A DNA stretch of 64,000 nucleotides. Source: a virus. Of this stretch, positions 4,867 through 54,542 are shown in pieces. A program made the translations under genes and the position numbers. The stretch lies in IMG/VR virus record IMGVR_UViG_3300025687_000022; one strand, written 5' to 3'. Numbering within the stretch: the stretch's first letter is position 1; each line of letters opens with the position of its first letter. The notes under the pieces were generated by a model, which did no database searches, had not been told where the DNA came from, and was given only the letters and a program-made list of their open reading frames with translations.

Positions 4867-5802
4867 TTATATTGCTAATAACAAGTTTCTCAATAAATAG
4901 TCGTCATTATCAATAAAAGTAGCTTGTTTTTTACGTTGGTTAAAAACCTCTCTTGGCATCTCACCAACGTCTTCATAGCCTGTAGTATCTATTTTATATA
5001 GTTCAATATCATATTGAAGAAGCGTCTTAATAATCTTTTGCTCTTTTTTGCTTGCATCAGCATCGAGCGCCAGATAGACGGGCGTGTCGTTAAGAACGAT
5101 CTTTCGTACAAGTTTGGAGTTTGCTTGGATTGTTGAACCCAATAAAGGTATAGCGTTTCCTGCGATAATAGCATCAAATACTCCTTCGGTTATTGTTAGG
5201 TCTTTGTTCCAGTTTACATATAGTTCATTAAAAATAATGTTTTTAGATGCTCTTGGGTTTTTATATCGATAAGAAGAGTTATTGTAAGTTCTACCAACAA
5301 AATAGTTAATATCCCCATCATTATCAAATGACGGAATAATAATTCTTTTGTAGTATTCTCCAGTATTGCAATAGCCAATCTTCCAGCGCAAAATATCTGC
5401 ATCCGATACACCACGCTTGCGAAGATAATTGTACGCCGGATAAGCAACTGTAGGCAGTTTTTTACTAGCTAATGTGTCGAACTCTGGTGGTAACATTAGC
5501 TTTTGTTTTACTTCCGGCTCTGGCTCGCTAAACAAATCCGAAAAGCGATCAAGATCTATACGATTAGTAATTTGATCCCATTTCTGTAGTAAAGTAAATG
5601 AGCCAAATCTACGTATAATACGACGGATGTTACGACCACGGTAATCGCAAATCCAGCATTTAAAAAAGTTTTTGTCTATATTGATAGACAGTTTATTTTT
5701 ATGGTGGTTGCACACCGGGCATCCAAAAAGATATTCCGCTCCGTTCTGCTGATAATATCCTAATGTTTGGTGCAGTATGCTGATAGCTTCTGTTTTATTC
5801 AC
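4867..5802 (-). CDS. DNA primase (Zn-finger + TOPRIM)
   Basis: CPVCNHH...CWIC zinc finger, RIIIP, TEGVFDA and LALDADA TOPRIM motifs; GTG start. Confidence 0.9.
   Translation of the reverse strand: MNKTEAISILHQTLGYYQQNGAEYLFGCPVCNHHKNKLSINIDKNFFKCWICDYRGRNIRRIIRRFGSFTLLQKWDQITNRIDLDRFSDLFSEPEPEVKQKLMLPPEFDTLASKKLPTVAYPAYNYLRKRGVSDADILRWKIGYCNTGEYYKRIIIPSFDNDGDINYFVGRTYNNSSYRYKNPRASKNIIFNELYVNWNKDLTITEGVFDAIIAGNAIPLLGSTIQANSKLVRKIVLNDTPVYLALDADASKKEQKIIKTLLQYDIELYKIDTTGYEDVGEMPREVFNQRKKQATFIDNDDYLLRNLLLAI
4894..4901 (-). promoter_or_regulatory. putative late-promoter motif ACTATTTA
   Basis: Inside the 3' end of the primase gene, about 39 nt upstream of ATG 4855. Confidence 0.55.
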
Positions 5803-38002: not shown

Positions 38003-39127
38003 TTATCTACCGTCTATGCTCCAGTGCCAGGGTTCTTCCCTATAATTTTTAAAACCATCTGTCTTTTTCTCTAAATCCAGCATGTAGTTGTAAGTTTTTG
38101 AATTTTTAGCTGAATCAGTACCTAGAATGCCAGAAAAGTCTATCGCAAGACCAAATAAATGTCGAGAACCATCTTCTGGCGATTTAGTTGGGATAGGAGC
38201 AGCAGGAGGTTCAAAATTGCCATCGCCAGAACTTATTGTCAAAAGTTGTTCATAGGTAAAATCGTTTCCTGCTTTTATAGAATTAGTTATTCTTAGTGAC
38301 ATTTGCGTCTCCACGCTTCTAAGTCCACCTCCAGCGTCGAATTTTTCACCAAACCCTTGTGCTTTAACGTTCTCGTAAACTTCTTTTACTTTATCCCAAA
38401 AAACGGGGTGTAAAGTTACATTCTTTGTTCCTATCTTGCCTGTCTTACAAAGCACTATGTCATAGCCGCCTATGCCGCCACAATGTCCCTCTGGAGGAAA
38501 CAATTTTGCTGCGTTAGGGTACTGGCTTGTCCAGTAGTCATAAAGCTTTTGTGTATTTTCTATATTACCTGGATTTTCACCATTCCTAAGTTCTGCTAAA
38601 GAAAAAACTGGAGATGTGTCAAAAGCATCTTTTAAACTTTCACAAGGTGCGCCGCCCTCTGGTGATTTTTGGAATATTTCTGATATTCTGGATAATTCTA
38701 TTGTTTGTAAGTCAAAATCTCCAACATCAGATGCGCGACATTCACCCACGATCTCATCACCAATTTGTAGATTGCCAACGTCAGGGCTGATTTTTGTACT
38801 AGCTATTATTCTTGTATGCAAACTACCAAGAACATTTTGTTTGTAAGGATCAGAAGCGACAGAAAGATCACAAATGTCAGGCAAGTAACTTTCATGAGCC
38901 ATATTGTTTTGTAATATTCTTCCCATAAAAATAAACTTAGTTTCGGCTCTTCCATCTTCTGTCTCCTTCTCCTCGGTATCACCACTTGAAGTTTGAGGTC
39001 CAGAAAATCTTGTTGGCTTACTAATCACCCTAATCTTAAAGGAGTTTTCGTTTTTAAACGCATTTGTTCCATCGTCAAGTGTTTTAACAAAAAGAATCTC
39101 TGCTAGCTCCCTTAATGAAAGAGACAT
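38003..39127 (-). CDS. protein with C-terminal M15-family (VanY-like/L,D-peptidase) peptidoglycan peptidase
   Basis: LRSVETQ, SRHLFGLAIDF (SxHxxGxAxD) and EPWHW (ExWH). Confidence 0.8.
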   Translation of the reverse strand: MSLSLRELAEILFVKTLDDGTNAFKNENSFKIRVISKPTRFSGPQTSSGDTEEKETEDGRAETKFIFMGRILQNNMAHESYLPDICDLSVASDPYKQNVLGSLHTRIIASTKISPDVGNLQIGDEIVGECRASDVGDFDLQTIELSRISEIFQKSPEGGAPCESLKDAFDTSPVFSLAELRNGENPGNIENTQKLYDYWTSQYPNAAKLFPPEGHCGGIGGYDIVLCKTGKIGTKNVTLHPVFWDKVKEVYENVKAQGFGEKFDAGGGLRSVETQMSLRITNSIKAGNDFTYEQLLTISSGDGNFEPPAAPIPTKSPEDGSRHLFGLAIDFSGILGTDSAKNSKTYNYMLDLEKKTDGFKNYREEPWHWSIDGR

Positions 39128-40891: not shown

Positions 40892-41251
40892 TTAATCTCC
40901 TTTTTGAATTCTATAACTATCTGAATCAAAATGTTGAGTTGAAAACTCAAACAATTCAGTGTCTTCTAACGCTATCATTTGGTGTCTAAGCCCACGATAT
41001 ACATGGAAATTGTCGCCCGATCCAAGTATTATTTCCTGTGCTTTTTCAATATCATCTGTGTCTGAAAAAAGAACTTTTATTTTTCCAGATTGGATATAAA
41101 AAACTTCATCTTTTAGTTCATGATAATGCCAAGAGCATTTTTTGTCTTTGACAAAATAGAGAAGCTTTCCGCAATACTCTTCGCAGTTAACGATCCATTT
41201 TTCAAATCCCCAGCCTTTGGGGACAAATTTAATTTCCAAAGAAGTCTTCAT
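40892..41251 (-). CDS. cupin (sugar-phosphate isomerase-like)
   Basis: VPKGWGFE, SWHYHELKDEVFYIQSG and LRHQM cupin motifs. Confidence 0.8.
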   Translation of the reverse strand: MKTSLEIKFVPKGWGFEKWIVNCEEYCGKLLYFVKDKKCSWHYHELKDEVFYIQSGKIKVLFSDTDDIEKAQEIILGSGDNFHVYRGLRHQMIALEDTELFEFSTQHFDSDSYRIQKGD

Positions 41252-41549
41252 CTTTCATTCCTTTGTCATCAATATAAAAATCACCAGATGGTTTGCCTAA
41301 AAACAAACGATGATATTTAACACCCCATTCTTTTAGTTGTGATTTTGTTAAAACCTCAAAAGCCTCATAAGCAAAAGCAATAGAATTTCCGCTTCTGCCC
41401 ATACCTCTTGCTGTTAAAAAATAAATGGTATGTCCTTGGTCATATAACTTATTTACAGTGTCTATTCTGTCTTGTAGAGGCTCTGCTCTTGAATATTTTC
41501 CATTAGTATTGGTGCAAATTGTACCATCTATATCAAAAACATATGTCAT
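41229..41549 (-). CDS. HAD-family phosphatase (capsule-biosynthesis type)
   Basis: FDIDGT, LTARG, GKP and YIDDK HAD motifs. Confidence 0.85.
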   Translation of the reverse strand: MTYVFDIDGTICTNTNGKYSRAEPLQDRIDTVNKLYDQGHTIYFLTARGMGRSGNSIAFAYEAFEVLTKSQLKEWGVKYHRLFLGKPSGDFYIDDKGMKDEDFFGN

Positions 41550-41938
41550 TGTAAACCTACCAATATATTTGTTGTTGAGTATCCTTCTATTCTATCAAAA
41601 AATTTTACTTCCTGCACATGTCTGGAGCCGATCACTCTTTTATCTTTGTAATCGGAACCTACCACCATTATTTCAGCACGACTTAAAAGAATCTGTGTAT
41701 CAAGCTCATCATCGTGGTTAAACACTCTTATTTCGTCAATGTACTTAATTGATTCAAGTAACATAACCCTATCTTCTATAGTGTTAAAAGGGCGCGACTC
41801 TCCCTTAGCGGCTCTAACTCTCTGGTCAGTATCAATTCCGACCACCAACCAATCACCAAGAGACTTAGCATATTTAAATAATTCTATATGTCCTCGATGT
41901 AAAACGTCAAAACAACCGTTTGTCCATATAACTTTCAT
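41546..41938 (-). CDS. hldC: heptose-1-phosphate nucleotidyltransferase (HldC/RfaE2-like)
   Basis: TNGCFDVLHRGH, KGESRPFN, VGSDY and YSTT; start refined to the ATGA overlap at 41938. Confidence 0.85.
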   Translation of the reverse strand: MKVIWTNGCFDVLHRGHIELFKYAKSLGDWLVVGIDTDQRVRAAKGESRPFNTIEDRVMLLESIKYIDEIRVFNHDDELDTQILLSRAEIMVVGSDYKDKRVIGSRHVQEVKFFDRIEGYSTTNILVGLQ

Positions 41939-42666
41939 ACTATAGTAACGCCTTTTTTCTGTACCACAATTGTAGCACATGTATTACCGAATTTTATAGA
42001 TTTATGAATATTTTTAGATTTTACATATTCGGCAACCATAGCAGCAATAAAAGTATCACCAGCACCCGATGTGTCTTTGATTTCTACTTTTGGTACTGGA
42101 TAAATCATATTATTATACTTTGCCCCATCTGATCCCATTGTTACTATTAGGGTGTTTAATATTTCTTCATCTAATATGTGTTTTGTTTTTTCATATTCAT
42201 CAAGGTTAATCTTAATATAATTTATGCTTTTACACCACGAGCCTAAAATCTTTTTTGTATCTAAAAATACACAATCATGATTTTCTCCAATAAACTTTAT
42301 ATCTTCTTCCGTAAGAAAACCTTTGTTATAATCAGAAATTAGAATAACCGCATACTGAGAAAAATCTATTTTCTTAATATCACATTTATCATAAGAATTA
42401 TCATTTTTATCAAGTCTCATAAACATATGATTTGTCTTTTCATCAATAAATCTAGTTTTTGTAATATTTTTAAAATTATTGTTTGTGTGTAGAGTGCATT
42501 CAACTTCTAGAGATTGTAGATTTTGATAAACATTATAAGCCATTCCTCCATTTTCAATTTTATACAAAGGATTAAAAACAGGTACGGGGGCTTCAGGACA
42601 CAACCTTTTACATTCTCCGTACATAAATATATCTAAACAACTCTCTCCTATAACAAGAACTGTCAT
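41935..42666 (-). CDS. hldA: heptose-7-phosphate kinase (HldA/RfaE1-like, PfkB family)
   Basis: RLCPEAPVPV, GGMAYNV, ISDYNKG and DTSGAGDTF. Confidence 0.85.
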   Translation of the reverse strand: MTVLVIGESCLDIFMYGECKRLCPEAPVPVFNPLYKIENGGMAYNVYQNLQSLEVECTLHTNNNFKNITKTRFIDEKTNHMFMRLDKNDNSYDKCDIKKIDFSQYAVILISDYNKGFLTEEDIKFIGENHDCVFLDTKKILGSWCKSINYIKINLDEYEKTKHILDEEILNTLIVTMGSDGAKYNNMIYPVPKVEIKDTSGAGDTFIAAMVAEYVKSKNIHKSIKFGNTCATIVVQKKGVTIV

Positions 42667-43829
42667 TATATATCCTTTATAACGTTGCAAATAAATTCTA
42701 TCTCTTCTTCGGTCAATTCGGGGTAATTAGGCACAAAAAATCCTCTAGAATGAATTGCATCGCTTTGAAAATCAGCGAATTCATTATACAAATCAATCCA
42801 AAATGGATGTCTTCCTAAATTTCCAGCACTAAAAATTCTTGTCTCGATACCGTTTTCAACCAAACGACTTACTATTTCTTTTCTATGTTGCGTACTGTTA
42901 GCTAAGGCACCAAAAGAAATAGATACCGGGTACTCAACTCCCCAATCTTGAAACTCAACATAGCCTTGAAGCTTTTTAGCATACAGTAAATGATTTCTAT
43001 TTCTGTTTTTAGATGCCCACTCTGCTTTTTTGATTTGTCTAATTCCCAAAAAAGCCTGCAAGTCTGTTGACCTTAAATTGTATCCGGGTACAAAAAATGT
43101 AAAAGGAGAATGAAAATCGTCAATATTCCTTTCTTTCATCATGTCACTATAAGTTTCCTCATCCAGATCTTTAGCCCAACCGTGACTACGCAACATTAAA
43201 AGCATATCATAAAGTTTCTTATCATTGACGTTTACCATACCACCTTCAATTGTGGAAAGCTGATGTCCAAAATAAAATGAAAAAGAAGACATATCACCGA
43301 TAGTACCAACCATTGTGCCATCACTATATCTAGCCCCAAGTGCTGCACAAGCGTCCTCTAGAAGTACAAAACCATATTTTTCTTTCAGTTTCAACAACCT
43401 TTCTTTATGATGAGGAACACCCAATACTTGTACAAATATAACAGCATCAGGTCTTTCGGTTTCACAAATTTGCTCCAACTGATCCAGATCAATACCAAAA
43501 GTTTTTGGGTCCGCACCACACATAATTGGGTGTAATCCTAGCTGAATAGCTGGTGAAATCGTTGTAACCCATCCAACCGATGGAACAACTATTTTCTTAT
43601 TTGGTATTAGACCACATTGAACTGCTGTGGCTATCATTAAAAGATTAGCCGAAGACCCAGAATTATTGAATACTGAATATTTTGTACCGATATATTCAGC
43701 CCAATCTTTTTCTACCTGTAAAGTCAAATCTCCTTTTGTTAGTCTAGGATAACTTTTTAGCCAATTGCACAGCGCATCGACATCTTCATCATTAATTGTT
43801 TCTTTAGCCAACGGATATCTTATTTTCAT
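42666..43829 (-). CDS. PLP-dependent NDP-4-keto-6-deoxyhexose 3-dehydratase (ColD/RfbH-like, DegT family)
   Basis: NSGSSANLL, EDAC and GYNLR; SFYFGHQLSTIEGG has His at the position of the usual Schiff-base Lys. Confidence 0.8.
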   Translation of the reverse strand: MKIRYPLAKETINDEDVDALCNWLKSYPRLTKGDLTLQVEKDWAEYIGTKYSVFNNSGSSANLLMIATAVQCGLIPNKKIVVPSVGWVTTISPAIQLGLHPIMCGADPKTFGIDLDQLEQICETERPDAVIFVQVLGVPHHKERLLKLKEKYGFVLLEDACAALGARYSDGTMVGTIGDMSSFSFYFGHQLSTIEGGMVNVNDKKLYDMLLMLRSHGWAKDLDEETYSDMMKERNIDDFHSPFTFFVPGYNLRSTDLQAFLGIRQIKKAEWASKNRNRNHLLYAKKLQGYVEFQDWGVEYPVSISFGALANSTQHRKEIVSRLVENGIETRIFSAGNLGRHPFWIDLYNEFADFQSDAIHSRGFFVPNYPELTEEEIEFICNVIKDI

Positions 43830-44353
43830 TTAATCTCCTTTAAAAATTTAGATTTTTTGTCTCGTTCTGATAAAACCGGCAATGCCTTTATTAAAGGCCA
43901 TTTAATGTCTAATATTGGTTCGTCCCATCTTAGAGAAAATTGGTTTTCTGGAGAAACATAGTTTTCTGACCATTTATAATAGAACAAGCAATCTTCAGTT
44001 AAACAGTAGTGTCCATTCAAGAAATTTTTAGGAATAAAAACAGCAAAATTGCTATCTTCGTCCATCTCTATCTCAAATTTTTGTAAATATTGTTCACTTT
44101 GTTTATCATAATTTACAATAGCTAAATATATTTTTCCTTTAAGGCAGTATATCAATTTATCATTTATTGAATCTCCGTGCAAGCCCCTTAATACATTTTT
44201 TTTTGATTTTGTCAATTTATCAATTTTAAAATCTGGAAATTGGTTTACATCAAATAAATTTGTGATATTTCCTCTATTGTCTGAGAAGTTTTCTAAATAT
44301 ATTTTATACACTCCATTTAATGGAAGCTCTTCTTTTACAAACAACATTTTCAT
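43826..44353 (-). CDS. rmlC: NDP-4-keto-6-deoxysugar 3,5-epimerase (RmlC-like)
   Basis: DNRG, NVLRGLH, NGHYCL, WDEP..DIKWP and LSERD. Confidence 0.85.
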   Translation of the reverse strand: MKMLFVKEELPLNGVYKIYLENFSDNRGNITNLFDVNQFPDFKIDKLTKSKKNVLRGLHGDSINDKLIYCLKGKIYLAIVNYDKQSEQYLQKFEIEMDEDSNFAVFIPKNFLNGHYCLTEDCLFYYKWSENYVSPENQFSLRWDEPILDIKWPLIKALPVLSERDKKSKFLKEIK

Positions 44354-44378
44354 ACAATATTGTACTCCACAAATCAGT

Positions 44379-45167
44379 TCATTTGTTATTATTTTGCATA
44401 TTATTATATGCTTTTATCATTCGATCTGCAACTATATTTAAATATAGATTTTTGGCTTGTTGCGCGACTAAATCATAATAGTACAAATTTTCAGGGTTTT
44501 TCATACCATCCATTTCCATATTGTTATAAGATCCCCCAAATCCTGATGCTCCATCGGTGGGATTCCGACTGAAAAAATCGGGGACTGTTCTCCACAAATC
44601 TATCCCGTAAGACTCATACATTAAGATATGCAATAATGTTTTCCAATTATCTCCATTACATTGCCAACCGTAATTTTGTAAAACTTCAATACATCTTACT
44701 GAAAAGCATGGCAAACTAACACCTTCATTGTGTTTCCATACTTCCATGATTTGCGGTTCTCTCCAGCGACCTTTATAAAGCTCTACTCTTGGACGGCGGG
44801 GACCAACAAAACAATATTCATCTTTTATTGATAAGATATCATCAATAAAACCTTTTTTTATAAATGTGAAATCATCAGCACAAAGTAGAACAAATGTTGA
44901 TTTTTGGTTTCTTTGTGAAAACAAATAAAAATGATCTAAATGAAAACCATGACGACCTTCGCCTCTTGACCAAACAAAAGTTTTAACACTAAAAGGAAAT
45001 TTATTAAAATATTCTTGAGGAGGGCGTAAATCATCATCAGAATCATATTTTATCAAAACCTCACAATTTTCCGCATTTCCTCCACATTGCTGTAAACTTG
45101 TCAGTAGTTGATCTATATTGCTATCTTTATTACCTTTTACTCTTGAAGTCAATATCAATGTTAACAC
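44379..45167 (-). CDS. putative GT-A fold glycosyltransferase
   Basis: TLILTSR start strand, EVLIKYDSDD and VLLCADDF (DxD-like); inside the sugar cassette. Confidence 0.55.
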   Translation of the reverse strand: MLTLILTSRVKGNKDSNIDQLLTSLQQCGGNAENCEVLIKYDSDDDLRPPQEYFNKFPFSVKTFVWSRGEGRHGFHLDHFYLFSQRNQKSTFVLLCADDFTFIKKGFIDDILSIKDEYCFVGPRRPRVELYKGRWREPQIMEVWKHNEGVSLPCFSVRCIEVLQNYGWQCNGDNWKTLLHILMYESYGIDLWRTVPDFFSRNPTDGASGFGGSYNNMEMDGMKNPENLYYYDLVAQQAKNLYLNIVADRMIKAYNNMQNNNK

Positions 45168-45177
45168 AAAATACCTC

Positions 45178-45948
45178 TCAAATTTCTAAATAAAATTTCT
45201 TCATATCTTCTAGATTATCAAAAACACTGTTTTTGTCATAGTAGTTGTTATTCAAATTACCAACCAGATTGTATAGAACAATCATATCGTAAACATCATA
45301 AGTTGTTTTAGCGTTTCTCCCAGCCCAATCCCACAAAGTAATTTCTCTGCATTCTATTGTTGGTTCCCCCATGTGACCAAGATAAATTGACATATAGTTG
45401 TCTGCTACATGGTGTAGGAAATGAGGATGAAATATTTTTTCTCCAAACAACTCATAAGTTTTTCTGTCCATTGTTGGGAATTTCATAATATAATTTCTAT
45501 TATGTTTTCTTTCGGCTTTGGTTATTGGGTGTATTACACTTGGCGGAACTAATTCGGCTGGTAATTTATAGTAATGCCCGTTATTTTTAACCGTAACTGA
45601 TAAGCTAGTAACTTTATATATTCTATCATAATATAAAGGAGATTGTAAGAAATTAATAACAGAAAACAAATTTTTTGACGGCAAATAATCATCTACCAAA
45701 ACACAAAGATAATCTCCATTTGCCTGAGAAGCAAGAAAATTAATTGGGCGTATTGATCCTTCGTTGTCAGTATCTTTAAAATATTTAATATTTTTACTAT
45801 CAATACCAGAATTGGTAGAAGAAACTAAAATTTCATAATCAAAACCCAAGCTGTCCATACGATTAATAGTTAATATTGTTTTATCTAAATATTTTTCGTG
45901 TGACCTGTTGGTTGGTATCAAAAAAGAAATATCTTTTTTACTTTTCAT
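45178..45948 (-). CDS. putative GT2-like glycosyltransferase
   Basis: ISFLIPTNR, YEILV and ANGDYLCVLVDD. Confidence 0.6.
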   Translation of the reverse strand: MKSKKDISFLIPTNRSHEKYLDKTILTINRMDSLGFDYEILVSSTNSGIDSKNIKYFKDTDNEGSIRPINFLASQANGDYLCVLVDDYLPSKNLFSVINFLQSPLYYDRIYKVTSLSVTVKNNGHYYKLPAELVPPSVIHPITKAERKHNRNYIMKFPTMDRKTYELFGEKIFHPHFLHHVADNYMSIYLGHMGEPTIECREITLWDWAGRNAKTTYDVYDMIVLYNLVGNLNNNYYDKNSVFDNLEDMKKFYLEI

Positions 45949-46477
45949 TATAATAATCACCCCACTCAACTAAAATGGTACTTTTTCCATCTGTCCTGTG
46001 ATATGCTTTATGATATGCTGGAAAAATATCTTCTGGCTCATCTAGTCTTATAACTTCTACTGTTGTCAACATATTTCTAAATGCATCGGTAAAGTCTCCA
46101 GTGTGTTGTATTTGCGGATTTAAAGGATTTTCAGACCCAATGCCAACCCGAATAATTGCTTTTGGAGCATATTCTCCGTGTGTATAAATTGAGTATTTGT
46201 CCAAATGATTAACCAATTGATTTACTGCTAAAAGAAGAAAATTCCAACGCGGGTATATACTAATCGGAACAGTTCCAGCTATGCTTAAGCCATTTGTGAT
46301 TCCCATTTGCATTTCTTCATTAACAGGCATTTCCAACAATTTATTTCTTGGAACTTCTTTCAAAGTATTTGTCATTGCCGTTCCTTTATATTCAACCGCT
46401 TGACCCAAAAATAAAGTATTATTTTGTTCTCCCAAATAAGACATAGCACGGCTTAATTCATCAAAATATTTTCCCAT
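45938..46477 (-). CDS. ThDP-dependent enzyme beta subunit (E1-beta/transketolase pyrimidine-binding domain only)
   Basis: LLEMPVNEEMQMG, AVNQLVN and QHT; lacks the transketolase C-terminal domain. Confidence 0.8.
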   Translation of the reverse strand: MGKYFDELSRAMSYLGEQNNTLFLGQAVEYKGTAMTNTLKEVPRNKLLEMPVNEEMQMGITNGLSIAGTVPISIYPRWNFLLLAVNQLVNHLDKYSIYTHGEYAPKAIIRVGIGSENPLNPQIQHTGDFTDAFRNMLTTVEVIRLDEPEDIFPAYHKAYHRTDGKSTILVEWGDYYNEK

Positions 46478-46489
46478 ATTGTTTTCTCC

Positions 46490-47101
46490 TTAAAATTGAA
46501 CTCTGATTCCAGCACCAGCATGAGGATATTTGTCTAATTTATATTTATAATAAGTAACATAATCGTCATTAATACCTTCATAAGTTAGCTTTTCCATATT
46601 CCATGTTGCTCTTGTGTCGGTGCAAACTGATTTTCCATTATCTTCAATTATAAAGTGTATCGGCAATTTGTGATTACGAGCATATTTTATACACTCATGG
46701 GCAGCGCCAGTCTCGGAAGTCATTTCTCCCATAAAACAATATACTTTATTTTTTCCGCCTCGACGTTTAATATCAATGGCTATGCCTAATGAAACAGACA
46801 ATTGTCCAGTTACAATTCCAGAACAAAGAATTTTGTGTTCTTTAAAACTTAAAGATATCGATCTCCCTTCTAAGATCGCTTCCTTCAATTGTTTTGGTGG
46901 AACACCTTTTAAAAGACACTGATAATGGCTTCTCCAAGAACATAAAACCCAATCTTCTTTTCCTATTTTATGTTTTTTAAAAACATCAATTATTTGTTCT
47001 TCATTACCATTATATAAATGAACAGGAGCTTTAATCATGGCTGAATTAAAACAATCTGCTATATCATTTTCGAATTCTATCAATTCTTCTTTTGTTAACA
47101 T
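46490..47101 (-). CDS. ThDP-dependent enzyme alpha subunit (E1-alpha-like)
   Basis: PVHLYNGNEE, WRSHY, GIVTGQ and a GE-x(n)-EDN variant of the GDG...NN motif. Confidence 0.8.
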   Translation of the reverse strand: MLTKEELIEFENDIADCFNSAMIKAPVHLYNGNEEQIIDVFKKHKIGKEDWVLCSWRSHYQCLLKGVPPKQLKEAILEGRSISLSFKEHKILCSGIVTGQLSVSLGIAIDIKRRGGKNKVYCFMGEMTSETGAAHECIKYARNHKLPIHFIIEDNGKSVCTDTRATWNMEKLTYEGINDDYVTYYKYKLDKYPHAGAGIRVQF

Positions 47102-48616
47102 TTAATCACCTAATATTTTCCTCTTTAATTTATGTTCGCACATTTTCACAATTCCATCGTGGGTTTCTTGACCGAATTTTTGCTTAATGTAACTTAGGTA
47201 TTTTGGATTTTGATAATACTCGTTAAAAGCATTATCTCTAAATTTTACTACTTCTGAAGAAGTAATATATTTTGTACTTAAAGGAAGTATATCATAGGAA
47301 TGCTGTGAATATCCACTATAAGTTTCTGGTAAGGGTAAATTATTTTTGATAGCATCCAAATATAGTCGTGAACCGGGGTATGCCATAGAACAATAAAAAT
47401 TGGCAAATTCACAATTTAAGTCTTTTGCTAGTTCTAAAGTTTCTCTCATTGTGCTGTGATCATCTTCCGGTAGACCAAAAATAAAATTCCCTATTACATT
47501 AATTCCAGAATCTTGTATTTCTTTAACTAAATCAGAAATCTTTACATCTGTAAACTTTCCTTTAACAACATCTTTTCTAACTACACCGTTACCAGACTCG
47601 ATACCAAGAGCTAACCATTCTATACCAGCTTTCTTTAGAGTGTCTAGGTAAGATTTTTTAACTGTATCAATTCTAGCATATGCCCAAATATTAAAATCAT
47701 ATTTTCTGTCTATTATTAGATTACACAATTTTAAAAAATGATCTTGATTTAAAACAAACATTTCGTCAGCAATTTTGATATTTCTAATCCCCATTTGATG
47801 TATCTTATCAAATTCATTTATAGCATATTCTGGATTCCAAAATCTAAATTTGTTTCTTTCATAATTCCAGTTCTCAACATTATTATTTCCAAACGGGGCG
47901 TTAATGCAACAAAAACTACATCTAAATGGACAACCCAAACTAGTATAAAGAGAGGCAAAAGGCATTGTTTGATTTTTGTTAGACATCCCATGCCAATTTG
48001 AAGTTCTATATTTTTCCATTGGCAACAAATCCCAAGCCATACCCGGAAGTTCTGTTTGCATCTCTTCTTGTGTTATTAATGGGGCAGGTTTAGTAAAACA
48101 AATTTTATCTCCATCCCTATACCATAAACCGGGAACCTTACTTAGCTGATAAGGATCCGATAAATTATCAACTTCCATTAATGCTGTTAATGTTCTGGGT
48201 CCTTCTCCCTGACAAACAAAATCAGTTTTTTCGTCTTGCATTGTTTTTCTAGAAACAGCAGACGGATAAAGTCCTGTTATTAGTACTTTTCTTTCTGGAT
48301 TGTTTTGTTTTAATATTTCTAAGCAATTGTGGACACCTAGCATATTCTGAGCCGATGCTGATGGCTGCTGTCCATAGACAACAAACACTACTAACTTTGG
48401 ATCAAAATCTTCTATTTTTAAATAACTTTCGACTGGACTTAGCTGCTCAGCCTCACAATCTAATATGGCTACATTTTCATATCCTTTCGAGCGGACATGA
48501 TTTGCCAACAAAGCAGCCCATATTGGTGGCTCTATAGCTGAGTATTTTTTACTCAGACTCTGATAAATTTGTTTTGAAGCATTCGGATGCACAAATAGAA
48601 TGTCCAATTTATTCAT
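47102..48616 (-). CDS. cobalamin-binding radical SAM enzyme
   Basis: N-terminal B12-binding-like domain (EPPIW, GEGP), GCPFRCSFC, LGIESG and FIFGLP; start refined to 48616. Confidence 0.88.
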   Translation of the reverse strand: MNKLDILFVHPNASKQIYQSLSKKYSAIEPPIWAALLANHVRSKGYENVAILDCEAEQLSPVESYLKIEDFDPKLVVFVVYGQQPSASAQNMLGVHNCLEILKQNNPERKVLITGLYPSAVSRKTMQDEKTDFVCQGEGPRTLTALMEVDNLSDPYQLSKVPGLWYRDGDKICFTKPAPLITQEEMQTELPGMAWDLLPMEKYRTSNWHGMSNKNQTMPFASLYTSLGCPFRCSFCCINAPFGNNNVENWNYERNKFRFWNPEYAINEFDKIHQMGIRNIKIADEMFVLNQDHFLKLCNLIIDRKYDFNIWAYARIDTVKKSYLDTLKKAGIEWLALGIESGNGVVRKDVVKGKFTDVKISDLVKEIQDSGINVIGNFIFGLPEDDHSTMRETLELAKDLNCEFANFYCSMAYPGSRLYLDAIKNNLPLPETYSGYSQHSYDILPLSTKYITSSEVVKFRDNAFNEYYQNPKYLSYIKQKFGQETHDGIVKMCEHKLKRKILGD

Positions 48617-48627
48617 TTTTTTATTCC

Positions 48628-49563
48628 TTAATAATTCGCATACCACGGTGATTCTATAATAGAATAAGCTTTTATCAATTGTATAATACCATCATCCAAA
48701 TCATATTTGCAGTCAAATCCTTTATTATAAATCTTCTGACTACTAACTTCATAATCACGAACATCTGGATCAGTATTTATTTCCGCTTTTATAATTTGTA
48801 AAGGTATGTGCTCTTGAATTTTTTTAGCTAGCTGTAGCTTATTCATATTTATTCCATCGTGACCCACATTATATGTCTCATTTTTACAATTATCCCAATT
48901 ATCAATTACAAATTTAAAAGATCTACATGCATCTTGTAAGTGCAAATAATTTCTCATAAATTCACATTCGTATAAAACTAATACGCCTTCTCTCAGTGCC
49001 TTAAGAACAAAATTATTTACCAATAGATCTGTTCTCATTCTAGAACCGGGTCCGAATACAGTTGCAAATCTAAAAGTGACATGATTTTCTATTTCTCGAT
49101 AAGCCTTTTCTGCCTGAACTTTTGTTGTTCCATATAGAGAAACTGGATTAAGAGGAGATTCTTCTGTACACATGGAGCCATCTTTGGAGGTTCCATAACC
49201 AGAATTAGTGCAAGGATAAATCACCATTTGATCTTTTGATTTGTTATCGGCAATCCATTGATTTACCTCATAATTTATTTCTCTTGCTCCTCGTTTGTCT
49301 TTTTCGCACAACGGGAAGCCGACTAAAGCTGCCAAGGGTATAATAACATCTGCTTGTGCCATATGCTTTCGTAAAAAATTTATATTTCTTACATCCCCTT
49401 TTTCAAAATTAAAATTTGAATCAACTGTATATCTTAACAGAGACGTAGCATCATACATAAGATTATCTATACAAGTAACTTGATGACCGTCTCTTAGTAA
49501 ATGTCCCGTCAATTCGCTACCGATATATCCAGCGCCACCTGTAATCAATATTTTTTTACTCAT
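48628..49563 (-). CDS. NAD-dependent NDP-sugar epimerase/dehydratase/reductase (extended SDR)
   Basis: ITGGAGYIG, YGTTK (YxxxK) and RFATVFG. Confidence 0.9.
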   Translation of the reverse strand: MSKKILITGGAGYIGSELTGHLLRDGHQVTCIDNLMYDATSLLRYTVDSNFNFEKGDVRNINFLRKHMAQADVIIPLAALVGFPLCEKDKRGAREINYEVNQWIADNKSKDQMVIYPCTNSGYGTSKDGSMCTEESPLNPVSLYGTTKVQAEKAYREIENHVTFRFATVFGPGSRMRTDLLVNNFVLKALREGVLVLYECEFMRNYLHLQDACRSFKFVIDNWDNCKNETYNVGHDGINMNKLQLAKKIQEHIPLQIIKAEINTDPDVRDYEVSSQKIYNKGFDCKYDLDDGIIQLIKAYSIIESPWYANY

Positions 49564-49865
49564 TAAAACTCCAATCTTCCAATTAAAATGTCTTTAAACA
49601 TAATCCAATCACACAATTTTGCTTTTATGGGGTGACTAAACGCGGCTGGTTTATTTTTTTCAAAAAAGTAATGCCCAGACCAAGCAAAAGGGTATACTAC
49701 AAAAGGTGCTAAAAACAACAATAACCAAAGTTTAAGGTATACAACCATAGCAATAAATATTATTGTTGCAATCTGTCCTAGTATGTGTGTTCTTCTGGTC
49801 CATCTATTTTGATGTAAGGTTAGATAATATTCATAATATTCACTAAGACTCATATCTTTATTCAT
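49563..49865 (-). CDS. DUF962 / Mpo1-like membrane protein
   Basis: YLTLHQ...RRTHILG and AWSGHYFFEKNKPA; start refined to 49865. Confidence 0.8.
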   Translation of the reverse strand: MNKDMSLSEYYEYYLTLHQNRWTRRTHILGQIATIIFIAMVVYLKLWLLLFLAPFVVYPFAWSGHYFFEKNKPAAFSHPIKAKLCDWIMFKDILIGRLEF

Positions 49866-50283
49866 TCCAACTAATCTCCCAATCTTTGAATTCTGCTGCC
49901 AGACAATCGATTTTATAATCTTTCCTGCCACCTACAATTTCTTGAATTTTATTTTTAGCAGTATTTCGAATTCCATTTAATCCGTGCGTCAACTCTAGAT
50001 TGTTGCCGTCTTTAATACCTTTACGGTAATTCGACTCGTTATGCCAAATGTGTAAATTCATTTGTGAAAGTACTACGATAGCTCTAATCGTTTTGGCATC
50101 AACTACCATATGTCCTTCTGAAGATTGTTTTTCTTCTAAAATCATCTGGATATCATACAAGATATCTGAAATTTCTTGTGCGTATTCATCTTTATGCTCT
50201 GAAATAAAGACTTCTTTTAACTGTGCGATACTAAGTCTGTCAACTAGTTCCGACAGTGTTGGGAGATATTTCCTATTTGTCAT
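49858..50283 (-). CDS. hypothetical helical protein, first gene under the cassette promoter
   Basis: ELVDRLSI...NLHIWHNE...NGIRN..KNKI pattern reminiscent of DUF4254/DUF6165-type proteins. Confidence 0.55.
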   Translation of the reverse strand: MTNRKYLPTLSELVDRLSIAQLKEVFISEHKDEYAQEISDILYDIQMILEEKQSSEGHMVVDAKTIRAIVVLSQMNLHIWHNESNYRKGIKDGNNLELTHGLNGIRNTAKNKIQEIVGGRKDYKIDCLAAEFKDWEISWNE

Positions 50284-50314
50284 TTGGGTGTTCCTTTTTT
50301 AATAGAATAAACAT

Positions 50315-50343
50315 ATTATAGCGCATATTAAACTGCATTTCAA
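50315..50343 (-). promoter_or_regulatory. sigma70-type promoter for the sugar-biosynthesis genes
   Basis: TTGAAA-17 nt-TATAAT in an intergenic gap, followed by SD AAGGA. Confidence 0.75.
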
Positions 50344-50372
50344 TATAATAATCATTATTCTTGTTATCACAT

Positions 50373-52004
50373 TTATTTTGTATTTAAAAATTGTGAAAAA
50401 TAGTTTTTATAAAGTTCATAGTTTTTTCCAAAAATATGACCATTTTTAAAAAATATCTGCGCTTCTTCTTTACGTTGCTCCAGATTATTTTGCGATTGCG
50501 ATCTGCCGCCTTCCATATATAAACCAACAACTTGTTCAACTTTAGAGAATATGCAGTTCTCGTTAACAGCACGAAGCCATAAATCCCAATCATCTGAAAA
50601 ATCTAGATTTACTTCATCAAAAAAACCAACTTTTTCATGAAGTCTTTTCCTCCACATTGGCATTGGCCCCGGTAAACATTTTATCATATTTTCTTTTGAA
50701 AATGGTAAAATGGAATGTTCAGATAATTTTGTTGATTTGGTGTTTTCTACTGTTTCGTTTTTTTTGTCCGTAACTAAGCAATCCCCATACACCAACTCTA
50801 TTTTATCACTGGATGTTAATCTATTATATAGAATTTCTATACCATCAATACTTTTTCTATCATCTATCATAGCCCAAACAACAAAAGGGCAATTACTCTT
50901 CATGATTGCTATATTGTGTCCAATTGTGGGCTTAAAATTTTTACTATATTGATAATAATGTATATTATTAAATTTTTTCATGTATTTTTTAACTATTTCT
51001 TTTTCTCTGCCGGGTGAAGCAGAATCAACTAGAATTAGTTCACACTGATCGAAAATTGTTTGTTTGGTTATGTTATCTAAATAATCTTCTATGTATTCTT
51101 CTGCTTTATGAAATGTTGTTATAATGCTAATCTTTTTATCAGTTTTTGTGATTCTAGGTTTATCTATTTCCTCTAATACTAAATTTAATATATAATCTCT
51201 TCTATCGTTCATATAATCTATTAATTTTTCGCCTTTTAGCTTAAACCACGGTTCATGACTAGCACCAACCATTTGATTTAAAATAACACCGACTCCCATC
51301 ATTCTAGCTTCACACACAATTCTAGATAATGTTTCCGGTGATTTAGGGAAAAAAATCAATTTTTTGTTATTACTAAGTTTATGTAAAAAATTGATATAAT
51401 TTGAGTCTTCTATTAAATCATATTCTAAATTATTTTTATTACAATAATCAATAGCACCTACTGTGTTTTTATGGGGTATTTGACTTTTCAAAATAGAAAC
51501 TCTATCTTTTTTTTGGTTTTGAGATAAAGCTTTCAATTTAGTTAATACTTCCAAAGACCACAAATTTCCATTTACGGATAAAACATTGTCTAACTCAAGA
51601 TTTTTTGTGATTATATTTTTGTGATAATTTGTTTGGCAAAAGACTTTTTTAGCATTTTTGTAAAAGAAATAATTTCTAAAATTATCATTTGAAGCTTTGA
51701 AGTCTTTAAAAAATATTGGATTTCTTGTATTTAAATATTTATGATCATGTTCGTATATTATGTATTCGCACTCATAGGTAATTTTTTCTCTAACATCATA
51801 TGAAAGATTACAAAAATTAGATATTATATAAAAACAATCCAGATTGTTTTGAATTATTTTCTTAGTAACCAAATGAGATTGAAAACATTCAACTTTCCTA
51901 CCACTATGTCTTAGAAGTTTAATTAATTCATGGTCGTTTAATTCGCCACCACCAACAATGTGGTTTACGAAAAAATCAGCTATATAAATTATTTTTCTAT
52001 TCAT
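50373..52004 (-). CDS. two-domain glycosyltransferase (GT-B/GT4-like N-terminus + GT2 C-terminus)
   Basis: GGGE and PETLSRIVCEARMMG (GT4 EX7E); then ISIITTF, ILVDSAS, IDD and DDWDLWLR (GT2). Confidence 0.85.
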   Translation of the reverse strand: MNRKIIYIADFFVNHIVGGGELNDHELIKLLRHSGRKVECFQSHLVTKKIIQNNLDCFYIISNFCNLSYDVREKITYECEYIIYEHDHKYLNTRNPIFFKDFKASNDNFRNYFFYKNAKKVFCQTNYHKNIITKNLELDNVLSVNGNLWSLEVLTKLKALSQNQKKDRVSILKSQIPHKNTVGAIDYCNKNNLEYDLIEDSNYINFLHKLSNNKKLIFFPKSPETLSRIVCEARMMGVGVILNQMVGASHEPWFKLKGEKLIDYMNDRRDYILNLVLEEIDKPRITKTDKKISIITTFHKAEEYIEDYLDNITKQTIFDQCELILVDSASPGREKEIVKKYMKKFNNIHYYQYSKNFKPTIGHNIAIMKSNCPFVVWAMIDDRKSIDGIEILYNRLTSSDKIELVYGDCLVTDKKNETVENTKSTKLSEHSILPFSKENMIKCLPGPMPMWRKRLHEKVGFFDEVNLDFSDDWDLWLRAVNENCIFSKVEQVVGLYMEGGRSQSQNNLEQRKEEAQIFFKNGHIFGKNYELYKNYFSQFLNTK

Positions 52005-53259
52005 ATTCTTTTATAATATCCGATATTTCATTAAACCAATCATTGACATTTTCTTGATTATTATAAAATAAAATAATAAACCTCTCATACATCTTTTCGG
52101 CAGAGAAAGTCTCGTGTAGGCGCTTTACATTTTGCTCCAAAGCAATCATTTGTGTACCACGAGTCTCTTCGTTAGTCATTTGTTCATAACAAAGTCTCAT
52201 TTGTTGCTTTGCAGACTGCTCACGCGGATAAGCCCACATAGAGTCTTTGATCAAAACATTCTCCCAAACAACCTCCTGCTGAATTGGCTGTAAGTCAAAT
52301 GCGACGTTATAAAAATGTTGCTTACCTTGCTCATCAACCAAAAAATCTAACTGCCCTGACCAGCCTGTAGCGACCACAGGAAGCCCAGAATAGGCTGCTT
52401 CAAAGATTGGAAGACCAAAACCCTCACCATGAGGTAAAGCAAGGAAAGCATCTACAGAAGAATCTTTATAAAGCGCATGCATTTCTTTATCGGTCATATC
52501 GCCATGAAGAAGATAAACTTTGCATTTGTGTTCTGGAAGGTTTGCTAAAAACGATTTAAGATCTTTAAGAATCTTGTTTCTATCCATTAAGCTATTTTTA
52601 ACAATGTTGGTCTTAAGAATTAAGCCAACGTCTTCGTTATCTGCGAATTCCTCAACAAACCACTTAAGAGTATTTGGAAGGTTTTTGCGAGGTCCAAACT
52701 GAGCAACAGATAGAAAATTAAAGCTGGTGGAAAGATTTAGATTTAAATCTGGAAGGTTTTCAAAAACTTTAACTGGATAATTCACAGCCTCAACTGGAGT
52801 TTGAAGTCTGTACTGAAATTCTTGCTGACCGTTGGTTGCAATAGCCACAGTGTCTTCAAAGATATTTTTAGAATGGTTAGAGACAACAATAATTTTATCT
52901 ACAACCTCATTTCCTTTTTGAAGCCAGACGGGAGCCACTTTAGTTGTTTCAATTCCAGCCGTGTAGCCAATATTGATAGGAGCCAGTTTTTCCCATTCGT
53001 TTGGAATCGTAACTTGAACTGACATATCAAAAGTGCCACCGCTTTGAATATAAGCAATGGTCTTTTCAATCGTCATATCGATCCATACTCGCTCTTCATC
53101 CATGTCAGTCAGCCAAGACGTGGCACCCCATTGAAGAGGCTGAATGAAAACTTCAAATAAGTCCTCTCTTGAGCGAAGAGAGCGTAGCGCAAATCTTGCT
53201 TGCTCTCCATAGCCAGAACGAGTTAGTAGTGGTCCTTTTAGTAAAACCTTTTTTCTCAC
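51997..53259 (-). CDS. GT4-family glycosyltransferase
   Basis: RSGYG, PRKN and HGEGFGLPIFEAAYSGLPVV; GTG start after GGAGG. Confidence 0.9.
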   Translation of the reverse strand: MRKKVLLKGPLLTRSGYGEQARFALRSLRSREDLFEVFIQPLQWGATSWLTDMDEERVWIDMTIEKTIAYIQSGGTFDMSVQVTIPNEWEKLAPINIGYTAGIETTKVAPVWLQKGNEVVDKIIVVSNHSKNIFEDTVAIATNGQQEFQYRLQTPVEAVNYPVKVFENLPDLNLNLSTSFNFLSVAQFGPRKNLPNTLKWFVEEFADNEDVGLILKTNIVKNSLMDRNKILKDLKSFLANLPEHKCKVYLLHGDMTDKEMHALYKDSSVDAFLALPHGEGFGLPIFEAAYSGLPVVATGWSGQLDFLVDEQGKQHFYNVAFDLQPIQQEVVWENVLIKDSMWAYPREQSAKQQMRLCYEQMTNEETRGTQMIALEQNVKRLHETFSAEKMYERFIILFYNNQENVNDWFNEISDIIKEYE

Positions 53260-54542
53260 GCTACCTCCAGTAAGTGCCAAGTTTGATAGTTCTTTCTATT
53301 TTCCCAAGAACCATGCTTCTCGATTATTTCATCCATTATCCGTACCCATTCGCTTTCATAGTTATCAAAGTTGTAATTTTCACGAACATGCATCTGACCA
53401 GAAATAGACATTTTCTTATAAGCACGGTCGCTTGTATACATAGCTTCGCTTAAAGCATTGATAAAGTCTTGTTTGGCGATTCTATCCTCGTAAATATAAG
53501 GAACGCTTAAAGAACCAATAATAGACTTAGATGCAGGCTCTATGCCGATACCAAACCAATCTTTACCATTTGTAACTTGCTCTTGCAATCCACCAGTCAT
53601 GTTAACAATAATTGGAGTTCCACAAGACAGCGATTCAAGCGTAGATAACCCAAAGCCTTCTGCATCTGAAATATTAATCGTAAAATCGGCTGCATTATAA
53701 ATATTCGCAAGGTCTTCTGGTGCTACCTTATTTGTTGAAATAAGAACCTGACCATCATCAAGACCAAGATGCTCAATAATGTGTGGCAGATCTTGACCAT
53801 GTGGGTCACGAGGATCAGTGTGCATTAGTAACATCGCTTTATCATGACCAACATAATCTAGAAAGCTTTTAAACCACCAGATAAGTGTACCGCTTTGTTT
53901 ACGACGGGCATTTCTGTTATTCCAAAAGAAAATAGTTTTTTCTTTATTTTTGAACTTTCTACTTGATTCAACAGTTAGTTTGGTTCTTGTATCTTTTACT
54001 TGTTGCTTTAGTTCATCAGTTTTATACTTATAAAAAACATTGGAATTTACAGCATGTGGAAGATAACGCGAGCTTACATCTGGTGAAACTTCCTTAACAA
54101 TGTCATGGGTCACTTTTGAGATGCAAACAACCTCATCGGTTGAGTTATAAAACTCAGCGTTGTAGTGAGGAGCAGGAAAGTTATCCCATACATGATAATA
54201 AACCATAGGAACACAAGCCCTAATCTCATTTTCAATTTCCCAAAGCCAAGTATAAAAACGAGGATCAGTCATAAACCAAAGAACATCGGGGCGCTCTTTC
54301 TGCAGAATTGACCGAATAATCTCGTGATTACCATAACCATCAACTGGAAAGATTCGCCAATCATCACCATAAGGTTCGACTTTCTGCGGCTGATAGCTCT
54401 GATGCTTCATAGCCCCGCCCAAGCAAACGAAAGAATATCGTCCAGTCTTGAGCAGGGCTTCAATCATATATTTTGTTTGCGTACCAACACCAGACGGTGT
54501 TAGTGGATGGTCCGATAAGACCAAAATCTTTTTCTTTTGCAT
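53256..54542 (-). CDS. GT4-family glycosyltransferase
   Basis: PSGVG, NRNARRK and AEGFGLSTLESLSCGTPII. Confidence 0.9.
   Translation of the reverse strand: MQKKKILVLSDHPLTPSGVGTQTKYMIEALLKTGRYSFVCLGGAMKHQSYQPQKVEPYGDDWRIFPVDGYGNHEIIRSILQKERPDVLWFMTDPRFYTWLWEIENEIRACVPMVYYHVWDNFPAPHYNAEFYNSTDEVVCISKVTHDIVKEVSPDVSSRYLPHAVNSNVFYKYKTDELKQQVKDTRTKLTVESSRKFKNKEKTIFFWNNRNARRKQSGTLIWWFKSFLDYVGHDKAMLLMHTDPRDPHGQDLPHIIEHLGLDDGQVLISTNKVAPEDLANIYNAADFTINISDAEGFGLSTLESLSCGTPIIVNMTGGLQEQVTNGKDWFGIGIEPASKSIIGSLSVPYIYEDRIAKQDFINALSEAMYTSDRAYKKMSISGQMHVRENYNFDNYESEWVRIMDEIIEKHGSWENRKNYQTWHLLEVA

Follow-up and report, generated by a model that had tools for sequence, protein, structure and literature searches.

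The DNA analysed here, a stretch of 64,000 nucleotides from the IMG/VR virus record IMGVR_UViG_3300025687_000022 (the window, taken at its full length of 64 kb), is part of a large marine T4-like phage. It encodes PhoH and a baseplate wedge protein, contains giant open reading frames (ORFs) that resemble fibre genes, and has nearly all genes on the minus strand. The baseplate protein is at most 33% identical to any cultured-phage protein in a protein search. Positions 40892–54542 hold a unit of 17 genes, all on the minus strand, with intergenic gaps of −74 to +89 bases. The unit extends beyond the 42666–49563 stretch that a first-pass annotation had singled out as a pathway for an unusual branched or deoxy sugar; the genes listed there were all recovered in place on the minus strand, with matching families and an intact appearance. 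On balance, we favour the view that the 17 genes form one single-strand operon for making and transferring a modified heptose, with 42666–49563 as its enzymatic centre.

The gene at 48628–49563 encodes an extended short-chain dehydrogenase/reductase (SDR) resembling Cj1427, a nucleoside diphosphate (NDP)-heptose C4-dehydrogenase, with a score of 303 bits to PDB entries 6VO6 and 6VO8 as against about 70 bits for the next SDR. Its AlphaFold2 model (pLDDT 92.7) matches the entry titled 'Crystal structure of Cj1427' with a Z score of 44.3 and a root-mean-square deviation of 1.4 Å over 305 residues (48% identity), and the runner-up entry reaches a Z score of 36.8; it is from the entry title in this comparison that 6VO6 was identified as Cj1427. 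Residues G9, A11, G12, S121, Y144 and K148, which make up the Rossmann and catalytic Ser/Thr...YxxxK motifs, are invariant in 27 homologues. The protein shares the motif TNSGYG with Cj1427 and is without the Asp-Glu pair of 4,6-dehydratases; RmlB has TDEVYG at this position. From its sequence and modelled fold, the SDR is predicted to be a C4-dehydrogenase of an NDP-heptose that leaves the 6-hydroxyl in place. Cj1427 itself keeps the 6-hydroxyl, and its bound NADH is recycled with 2-oxoglutarate (PMC10680097). No 4,6-dehydratase, GDP-mannose 4,6-dehydratase (GMD) included, was found among the scanned ORFs of the window, where the Cj1427-like protein is the sole SDR.

At 42666–43829 lies a gene for a DegT-family protein (PF01041, 221 bits) of the type of ColD, a C3-dehydratase dependent on pyridoxamine or pyridoxal phosphate (PMP/PLP). 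ColD is its best PDB match (2GMS, 184 bits, vs 137 bits for E1, 3BCX), and no E3-type reductase gene occurs in the scanned ORFs. The first-pass annotation had described it as ColD-like with His replacing the catalytic Lys, which the PDB alignment bears out: the His falls on His188 of ColD, in a register fixed by the H188N and H188K mutant chains. The alignment supports a ColD-type (His) C3-dehydratase. The characterised substrate of ColD is GDP-4-keto-6-deoxymannose, and a heptose C3-dehydratase of Campylobacter jejuni HS:5 is 62–67% identical to ColD (PMC10440746). When mixed in vitro with the HS:5 enzyme, Cj1427 gave GDP-D-glycero-3-deoxy-4-keto-heptose, listed among novel GDP-heptose modifications (Raushel; PMC10680097), and an NDP-3-deoxy-4-keto-heptose is the intermediate predicted for the phage.

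The adjoining gene at 43826–44353 encodes an RmlC-fold cupin, which is a candidate for epimerising a 4-keto sugar nucleotide at C3, C5 or both. Its best PDB matches (8DCL, 8DCO and 8DB5, 88 bits) are the C. jejuni GDP-D-glycero-4-keto-D-lyxo-heptose 3- and 3,5-epimerases, compared with 71 bits for RmlC, and the His and Tyr dyad positions align. The best structural matches of SDR (Cj1427), cupin (the 3- and 3,5-epimerases) and DegT protein (ColD) are thus GDP-heptose enzymes of C. jejuni or direct relatives of these. A Cj1427-like SDR, a heptose-type cupin, heptose-activation genes following directly and the lack of a 4,6-dehydratase in the scanned ORFs together point to C4 oxidation and C3 deoxygenation of an activated heptose. 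They do not support the 3,6-dideoxyhexose product that had been suggested at first pass.

The heptose-activation genes occupy 40892–42690. An HldA-like PfkB sugar-phosphate kinase of short form (41935–42690, 251 aa) scores 116 bits against TIGR02198 (rfaE domain I; cut-off 345), has the motif DTSGAGD and is 46–51% identical to its cyanophage homologues. An HldC-like heptose-1-phosphate nucleotidyltransferase (41546–41980) scores 115 bits against TIGR02199 (rfaE domain II; cut-off 181) and carries HRGH and GYSTT motifs. The two rfaE domains are the best models for these proteins, and the catalytic motifs are kept. The small HAD phosphatase at 41229–41549 belongs to the EcbF/BcbF capsule phosphatase family (E 9e-10), is 54–58% identical to cyanophage genes annotated as 'phosphoheptose isomerase' and, as we infer, plays a GmhB-like role. 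A small WbuC-like cupin (40892–41251; NCBIfam WbuC cupin, E 1e-4) is 65–67% identical to the cupin that adjoins the HldA and HldC homologues in cyanophages P-TIM68 and S-SM2, and its sequence makes an isomerase or epimerase of the activation module possible. The cyanophage labels 'phosphoheptose isomerase' (for the small HAD gene) and 'cysteine dioxygenase' (for the cupin) look wrong. Phage HldA-like kinases are uniformly short, at about 245–251 aa (homologues in contigs L014 and L015 included) vs about 310 aa for bacterial HldA, and the start codon in the window is TTG. Viral HldC-type enzymes make NDP-heptoses, and some members of the family also make CDP- or UDP-heptose (PMC11461863). In the phase I lipopolysaccharide (LPS) locus of Coxiella burnetii, a second, reversed HldE-like gene (CBU0678) is required for phase I LPS (PMC5843353, PMC13552124).

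A pair of small genes encodes the subunits of a thiamine diphosphate (ThDP) enzyme. The alpha-like PP-domain subunit (46490–47101, 203 aa) matches E1_dh with 49 bits over profile positions 9–180 of 300, and keeps the cofactor motif GEM...EDN (G125-E-M...E153-D-N155). The beta-like PYR-domain subunit (45938–46477, 179 aa) matches Transket_pyr with 25.5 bits (cut-off 27) and the pyruvate dehydrogenase (PDH) E1 beta model with 30 bits, and its catalytic Glu (E54) is invariant within a PxxE...G...G motif. Relatives of the alpha subunit number thousands in metagenomes; among the best 120, identity is never below 78% and the length is always close to 203 aa. The alpha subunit scores 81 bits against PDH_E1_alph_y vs 18–22 bits against transketolase and DXS models, which indicates a 2-oxoacid donor. 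The best family matches being PDH E1 alpha and beta models, the pair could be read as an ordinary 2-oxoacid dehydrogenase E1 carried as an auxiliary metabolic gene. We reject this reading as very improbable: the alpha subunit covers the N-terminal half of an E1 alpha only, the beta subunit is a PYR domain without the C-terminal domain, no lipoyl, E2 or E3 domain occurs in any scanned ORF of the window, and the neighbours in 80 prokaryotic loci are consistently sugar-tailoring genes. The first-pass annotation had likewise noted an E1-like pair without E2 or E3 in the window.

In actinomycete antibiotics, the branching of C3 or C4 keto-sugars with a C2 unit from pyruvate has been demonstrated for, or ascribed to, E1-type enzymes of this kind (alphaKADH2), of which KbDH-alpha/beta has been studied in vitro (PMC12247030, PMC4753412). 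If the phage pair behaves like them and like YerE (PMC9306805), the reaction would fall on the C4 ketone of a 3-deoxy-4-keto-heptose. The best reading, in which the earlier proposal of a C-branch is upheld, is that this E1-type pair, lacking E2 and E3 and set among sugar-tailoring genes, adds a C-branch to a 3-deoxy-4-keto sugar. No C4-reductase was found in the cluster, which fits if carboligation consumes the C4 ketone.

Another enzyme of the centre (47102–48646) is a cobalamin-binding (class B) radical S-adenosylmethionine (SAM) protein, with an N-terminal B12-binding domain (PF02310, 47 bits) and a Radical_SAM domain (PF04055, 58 bits); its CxxxCxxC motif (C239/C243/C246) is invariant in 43 sequences. 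The best NCBIfam models are BchE and HpnJ (about 128 bits; cut-offs 481 and 578) and the best methylase model reaches 89 bits, all far below cut-off, and a PDB sequence search matched only AprD4 and one unnamed entry. Most characterised class B radical SAM enzymes are methyltransferases. We put C-methylation at about even chances, a radical C–C cyclisation or rearrangement that consumes the branch ketone as a less probable though real possibility, and any other reaction as improbable. Across 35 loci with full flanks, 12 have the radical SAM gene only, 12 an extra SDR only, seven both and four neither, a weak tendency to mutual exclusion (Fisher p = 0.04, in a test of loci that are not independent). 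Cyanophage versions of the gene set without the radical SAM gene carry alcohol dehydrogenase (ADH) or FabG reductases, a hint that the radical SAM enzyme may handle the branch ketone. A phosphonate pathway of the Fom3 or PhpK-like kind was rejected because the ThDP enzyme falls outside the PnPy decarboxylase type and a PEP mutase is missing.

When prokaryotes were scanned with one genome for each species, 140 relatives were recovered, and 80 bacterial and archaeal loci with the mini ThDP pair were kept; the gene counts that follow refer to about 10 kb around the ThDP pair. Pelagibacteraceae are represented by many single-cell genomes and Streptomyces by a metagenome-assembled genome (MAG); other hosts are Herbaspirillum, Massilia, Spirulina, Verrucomicrobiota, Planctomycetota and Woesearchaeota. 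Cultivable carriers are Herbaspirillum lusitanum RL21-008-BIB-A, Massilia sp. 2TAF26 and Spirulina sp. CCY15215. Among sampled Burkholderiales the ThDP subunit occurs in four of 401. Heptose-activation genes are present in 62 of the 80 loci, a DegT homologue in 57, a Cj1427-like SDR in 45, the B12 radical SAM gene in 41 (orthologues 40–51% identical), an RmlC-fold protein in 22 and GMD in five. His takes the Lys position in nearly all DegT homologues near ThDP pairs (62/66, bacterial loci and related phage contigs combined). In one SAR11 single-cell genome GmhA, ThDP alpha, ThDP beta, HddA, DegT, radical SAM, RmlC, SDR and HddC/GmhB stand in a row. The neighbourhood analysis that the first-pass annotation had proposed thus finds sugar-tailoring and heptose genes around the pair, and because of this gene context the phage cassette is a version of a widespread, horizontally spread and uncharacterised heptose-tailoring cassette. 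Locus L035 (9418–17487) and about 20 other Pelagibacteraceae loci have the cassette complete, with heptose, ThDP and B12 radical SAM genes; SAR11 bacteria are generally thought to use little cobalamin, which makes a B12-dependent enzyme for a surface sugar noteworthy in them. A plasmid search returned no plasmid with a ThDP alpha subunit at E <1e-20.

Ten related IMG/VR contigs share the gene order exo, GT4, GT4, GT2, a conserved 141-aa protein, an Mpo1-like protein (8/10), SDR, radical SAM, ThDP alpha, ThDP beta, a variable stretch of 1–8 kb, ColD-like and HldA. The variable stretch between the ThDP beta and ColD-like genes (11138–19706 in L001; also in L002–L004 and L006–L009) contains a second sugar kit. 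Besides GMD and two more SDRs, it encodes a glycosyltransferase, a small methyltransferase, a sulfotransferase-like protein and three paralogous proteins of 260–276 aa without a Pfam family, and it has a truncated gene resembling that of UDP-glucose dehydrogenase. In the GMD-bearing contigs, the small methyltransferase gene is the only one between GMD and the ColD-like gene. In the window this stretch is reduced to RmlC and two genes for GT-A glycosyltransferases. One 'viral' IMG/VR contig (L012, 1–20609) is 99.99% identical over 20,609 bases to a contig from a Candidatus Omnitrophota MAG (L078, 1–20609), so that the virus or the bacterial-bin label is probably wrong for one of the two.

Several observations weigh against the heptose interpretation. 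A true GMD (378 bits) lies by the ColD-like gene in eight of the ten related contigs. Both rfaE-type scores given above are below the equivalog cut-offs. The two proteins are of the beta/ADP type, which is no obvious fit, in nucleotide or anomer, to Cj1427, ColD and the C. jejuni epimerases with their GDP-alpha-heptose substrates. No GmhA, and no SIS domain, was found among the scanned ORFs of the window, so the starting sugar would have to be supplied by the host. The acceptor and branch position of the ThDP reaction are placed by analogy only. Finally, a FastTree phylogeny of both ThDP subunits places the phage clade (support 98) in a sister relation (support 99) with six bacterial loci in which heptose kinases and the radical SAM gene are missing; these have GMD in L016 and L019, a Cj1427-like SDR in L021 and an extra SDR in most.

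The GMD genes by ColD, the sister loci with GMD in place of heptose kinases and the characterised substrate of ColD (PMC10440746) would all suit a 6-deoxyhexose route. GDP-mannose would be converted to GDP-4-keto-6-deoxymannose by a 4,6-dehydratase (the host's, for the window phage), ColD would yield a 3,6-dideoxy-4-keto sugar and the ThDP and radical SAM enzymes would branch and modify it, giving a GDP-linked analogue of yersiniose. We consider this route unlikely. The window has neither GMD nor another 4,6-dehydratase among its scanned ORFs and its only SDR is Cj1427-like, two of the related contigs (L005 and L010) lack GMD yet keep the core, and among the bacterial loci GMD is far rarer than heptose activation (5/80 vs 62/80). 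The route would also leave HldA, HldC, the HAD phosphatase and the cupin without a role. Further, in L037, L083 and L086 the ThDP pair has a ColD-like homologue nearby that is 50–60% identical to that of the phage; of these phage-type ColD loci, L037 and L083 also have the radical SAM gene, and L083 a Cj1427-like SDR and HldC as well.

The insertion site between ThDP beta and ColD, which divides the cluster, also bears on whether the genes serve one product. Two or more independent modules can be envisaged, with ColD and RmlC making a colitose-like sugar and SDR, radical SAM and ThDP enzymes another, or with the ThDP pair as a mini-transketolase whose product, a ketose phosphate, would be the precursor that is later activated; the ThDP fold is common to transketolase, and the cyanophage ThDP enzyme travels with a kinase and a nucleotidyltransferase and without ColD or radical SAM. 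Against this stand the DegT homologues, almost all of His type, that flank the ThDP genes in 57 of 80 loci and often lie directly beside them, the far better match of the alpha subunit to PDH E1 alpha than to transketolase or DXS models, and the packing of the operon, which shows no sign of separate units. Independent modules are, in our estimate, unlikely.

The reading we favour, somewhat better than evenly supported in our judgement, is that the operon turns an NDP-heptose into a 3-deoxy, C-branched and further modified heptose and transfers the product. Here the enzyme families are tool results, and substrates and step order are inferred. The HldA-like kinase, small HAD phosphatase and HldC-like nucleotidyltransferase would convert a heptose phosphate into NDP-heptose, possibly with help from the small cupin. 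The Cj1427-like SDR would oxidise C4 with the 6-hydroxyl kept, and the ColD-type enzyme would remove the 3-hydroxyl using PMP regenerated from glutamate, a reaction whose by-product, 2-oxoglutarate, is the oxidant needed by Cj1427-type enzymes. The RmlC-fold enzyme may epimerise C5 and/or C3. The minimal ThDP pair would then decarboxylate pyruvate and place the two-carbon unit on the C4 ketone, giving a 4-C-acetyl tertiary alcohol, and the B12 radical SAM enzyme would act on an unactivated carbon. Five soluble glycosyltransferases would assemble the glycan in the cytoplasm.

A more specific but rather unlikely proposal has a caryose-type carbocyclic nonose as the product of the cassette. Caryose is a 4,8-cyclo-3,9-dideoxy-nonose of reportedly unknown biosynthesis, and a radical SAM enzyme has been suspected for other cyclopentane sugars (PMC9092360). 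With a C2 unit (C2H4O) added at C4, a 3-deoxy-4-keto-heptose becomes C9H16O7, which is isomeric with caryose, and the 3-deoxy position, C4–C8 bond, C9 methyl and both tertiary alcohols of caryose would follow from the SDR-to-ThDP steps. The radical SAM enzyme would take a hydrogen from C7, and the radical would add to the acetyl carbonyl to form the missing C7–C8 bond. This closure would be redox-neutral, which would explain why radical SAM cassettes, that of the window included, tend to lack a ketoreductase. Were the proposal true, a sugar with a fused cyclopentane ring would be a product of the phage and of many marine bacteria, and the route to caryose would be solved. Bradyrhizose was dropped as a product, since a dTDP-glucose 4,6-dehydratase is central to its candidate cluster (PMC4743980).

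Four known systems offer partial parallels. The capsular GDP-heptose enzymes of C. jejuni, described by the Raushel and Holden laboratories, include homologues of all three types represented by the phage SDR (Cj1427), cupin (Cj1430-type 3/3,5-epimerases) and His-type DegT protein (HS:5 C3-dehydratase; PMC10680097, PMC10440746). However, C. jejuni ends with a C4-reductase and has no ThDP or B12 radical SAM enzyme, whereas the phage lacks the reductase; it activates through HddA/HddC (GDP, alpha), the phage having HldA/HldC-type genes; and its C3-dehydratase naturally follows a 4,6-dehydratase, not Cj1427. The alphaKADH2 pairs (KbDH-alpha/beta of kibdelomycin, the aldgamycin pair, AviB1/AviB2 and Pau11/Pau12) are, like the phage pair, two-subunit E1-type ThDP enzymes without E2/E3 in a deoxy-sugar pathway, and form a pyruvate-derived C2 branch on a C3 or C4 ketone as predicted for the phage (PMC12247030, PMC4753412). 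The phage pair differs in having PP and PYR domains only, in its phage or surface-glycan context, as against an antibiotic cluster, and in its link with heptose genes.

The pathway of yersiniose A (DdhA-D, YerE, YerF), and likewise of erwiniose and caryophyllose, shares the logic of a 4-keto sugar, PMP-dependent C3 deoxygenation and a ThDP-dependent acyl branch at C4 (PMC9306805). YerE-like enzymes are single-chain members of the decarboxylase superfamily, in contrast to the E1-type phage enzyme, and the yersiniose route runs from a CDP-hexose through a 4,6-dehydratase and E1/E3 to a final ketoreductase; no such features were found in the window. LPS-like heptose gene sets of marine T4-like phages are the fourth parallel, with cyanophages P-TIM68 and S-SM2, the host-recognition clusters of pelagimyophages (PMC7029224) and the viral heptose enzymes of Tang et al. 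2024 (summarised in PMC11461863) as examples. HldA, HldC, HAD and cupin of the cyanophages are 46–67% identical to those of the window. Glycosyltransferases and radical SAM cassettes have been noted by tail-fibre genes in such phages, as in the window. Among GenBank phages, a related ThDP enzyme occurs only in these two cyanophages, as a fused protein (36–39% identical) that adjoins the HldA, HldC, cupin and HAD homologues together with Zn-ADH or FabG-type reductases. They lack a ColD-like enzyme, a Cj1427-like SDR and the B12 radical SAM enzyme, and are only distant kin of the window phage. Protein searches of cultured phages likewise found no such radical SAM enzyme (best 24%) and no Cj1427-like SDR (best 33%), and at the DNA level the cluster matched none of 50,697 phage records.

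The remaining genes of the operon concern mainly the transfer of the sugar. The 262-aa protein at 44379–45167 has no Pfam family; its AlphaFold2 model (pLDDT 89) has GT-A folds as all its top Foldseek matches (such as TarS, TarP and SpsA, probability 1.0), and D42/D44/D45 and D98/D99 are invariant in its family of 68 homologues, none of which lies in related loci. The gene at 45178–45969 is a weak GT2-family match (PF00535, 23.8 bits, at the cut-off) whose homologues in L005 and L010 are 31–36% identical. A 543-aa protein (50373–52004) combines an uncharacterised N-terminal half with a GT2 domain (PF00535, 46.6 bits, residues 293–438) and has no transmembrane segment. Two GT4 (GT-B) glycosyltransferases follow: that at 51997–53280 (Glycos_transf_1, 32 bits) is 57–62% identical in most related contigs and 47% in L010, and that at 53256–54542 (46 bits) is 69–74% identical in most and 55% in L010.

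Two small genes lie between the enzymatic centre and the GT2/GT4 genes. One (49563–49931) shares one base with the SDR stop and encodes a membrane protein of the Mpo1-like/DUF962 kind (PF06127, 98 bits), in which two segments are hydrophobic; present in eight of ten related phage contigs, it occurs in none of the 80 bacterial loci. The other (49858–50283) encodes the 141-aa protein, which is 70–83% identical in all related phage contigs; profile scans assigned it no family above threshold. None of the five glycosyltransferases has membrane segments, and no flippase, polymerase, initiating phosphotransferase or exporter was found. The cluster adjoins the giant fibre-like genes. In pelagimyophages a 'host recognition cluster' with LPS genes, rfaE and radical SAM cassettes has been read as modifying the host O-chain (PMC7029224). 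The glycan target in the window phage may be either a host lipid-linked surface-polysaccharide intermediate or the virion proteins of the phage itself.

GC content is 0.28–0.34 over the sugar genes (44000–52000), with a minimum at 50–52 kb in the 543-aa GT2 gene, and 0.35–0.41 in the flanking structural genes, a dip that would fit an island acquired from elsewhere. A gene (38003–39127) that separates the fibre-like genes from the cluster encodes a 374-aa protein with a weak C-terminal VanY-type D-Ala-D-Ala carboxypeptidase domain (E 3e-5), which may be a virion-associated cell-wall hydrolase. Elsewhere, a 311-aa ORF (4867–5802) has weak matches to a DnaG zinc ribbon and primase core, among unannotated and probably structural neighbours.

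The families described here are all known; their combination, of a heptose C4-dehydrogenase, a His-type C3-dehydratase, a mini E1-type ThDP enzyme and a B12 radical SAM enzyme, is not, and we found no paper describing the combination or its product. The first-pass annotation had recognised it from no characterised phage, and indeed no GenBank phage record carries it. It is unusual in that sense only, as it is widespread as a bacterial cassette and common across SAR11, Verrucomicrobiota, Burkholderiales, cyanobacteria and DPANN archaea, as well as throughout one lineage of large phages from the sea. Descriptions of E1-type enzymes that branch sugars come mainly from actinomycete antibiotic pathways to date, and the minimal pair of 203 and 179 aa would be attractive as a carboligase for making tertiary alcohols. 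For phage biology, the question is whether a lytic T4-like phage directs a costly B12-dependent pathway to the host surface, excluding competitors, or to its own fibres. The cassette probably specifies an unseen surface sugar, and its carriers include cells and viruses that rank among the most abundant of the sea.

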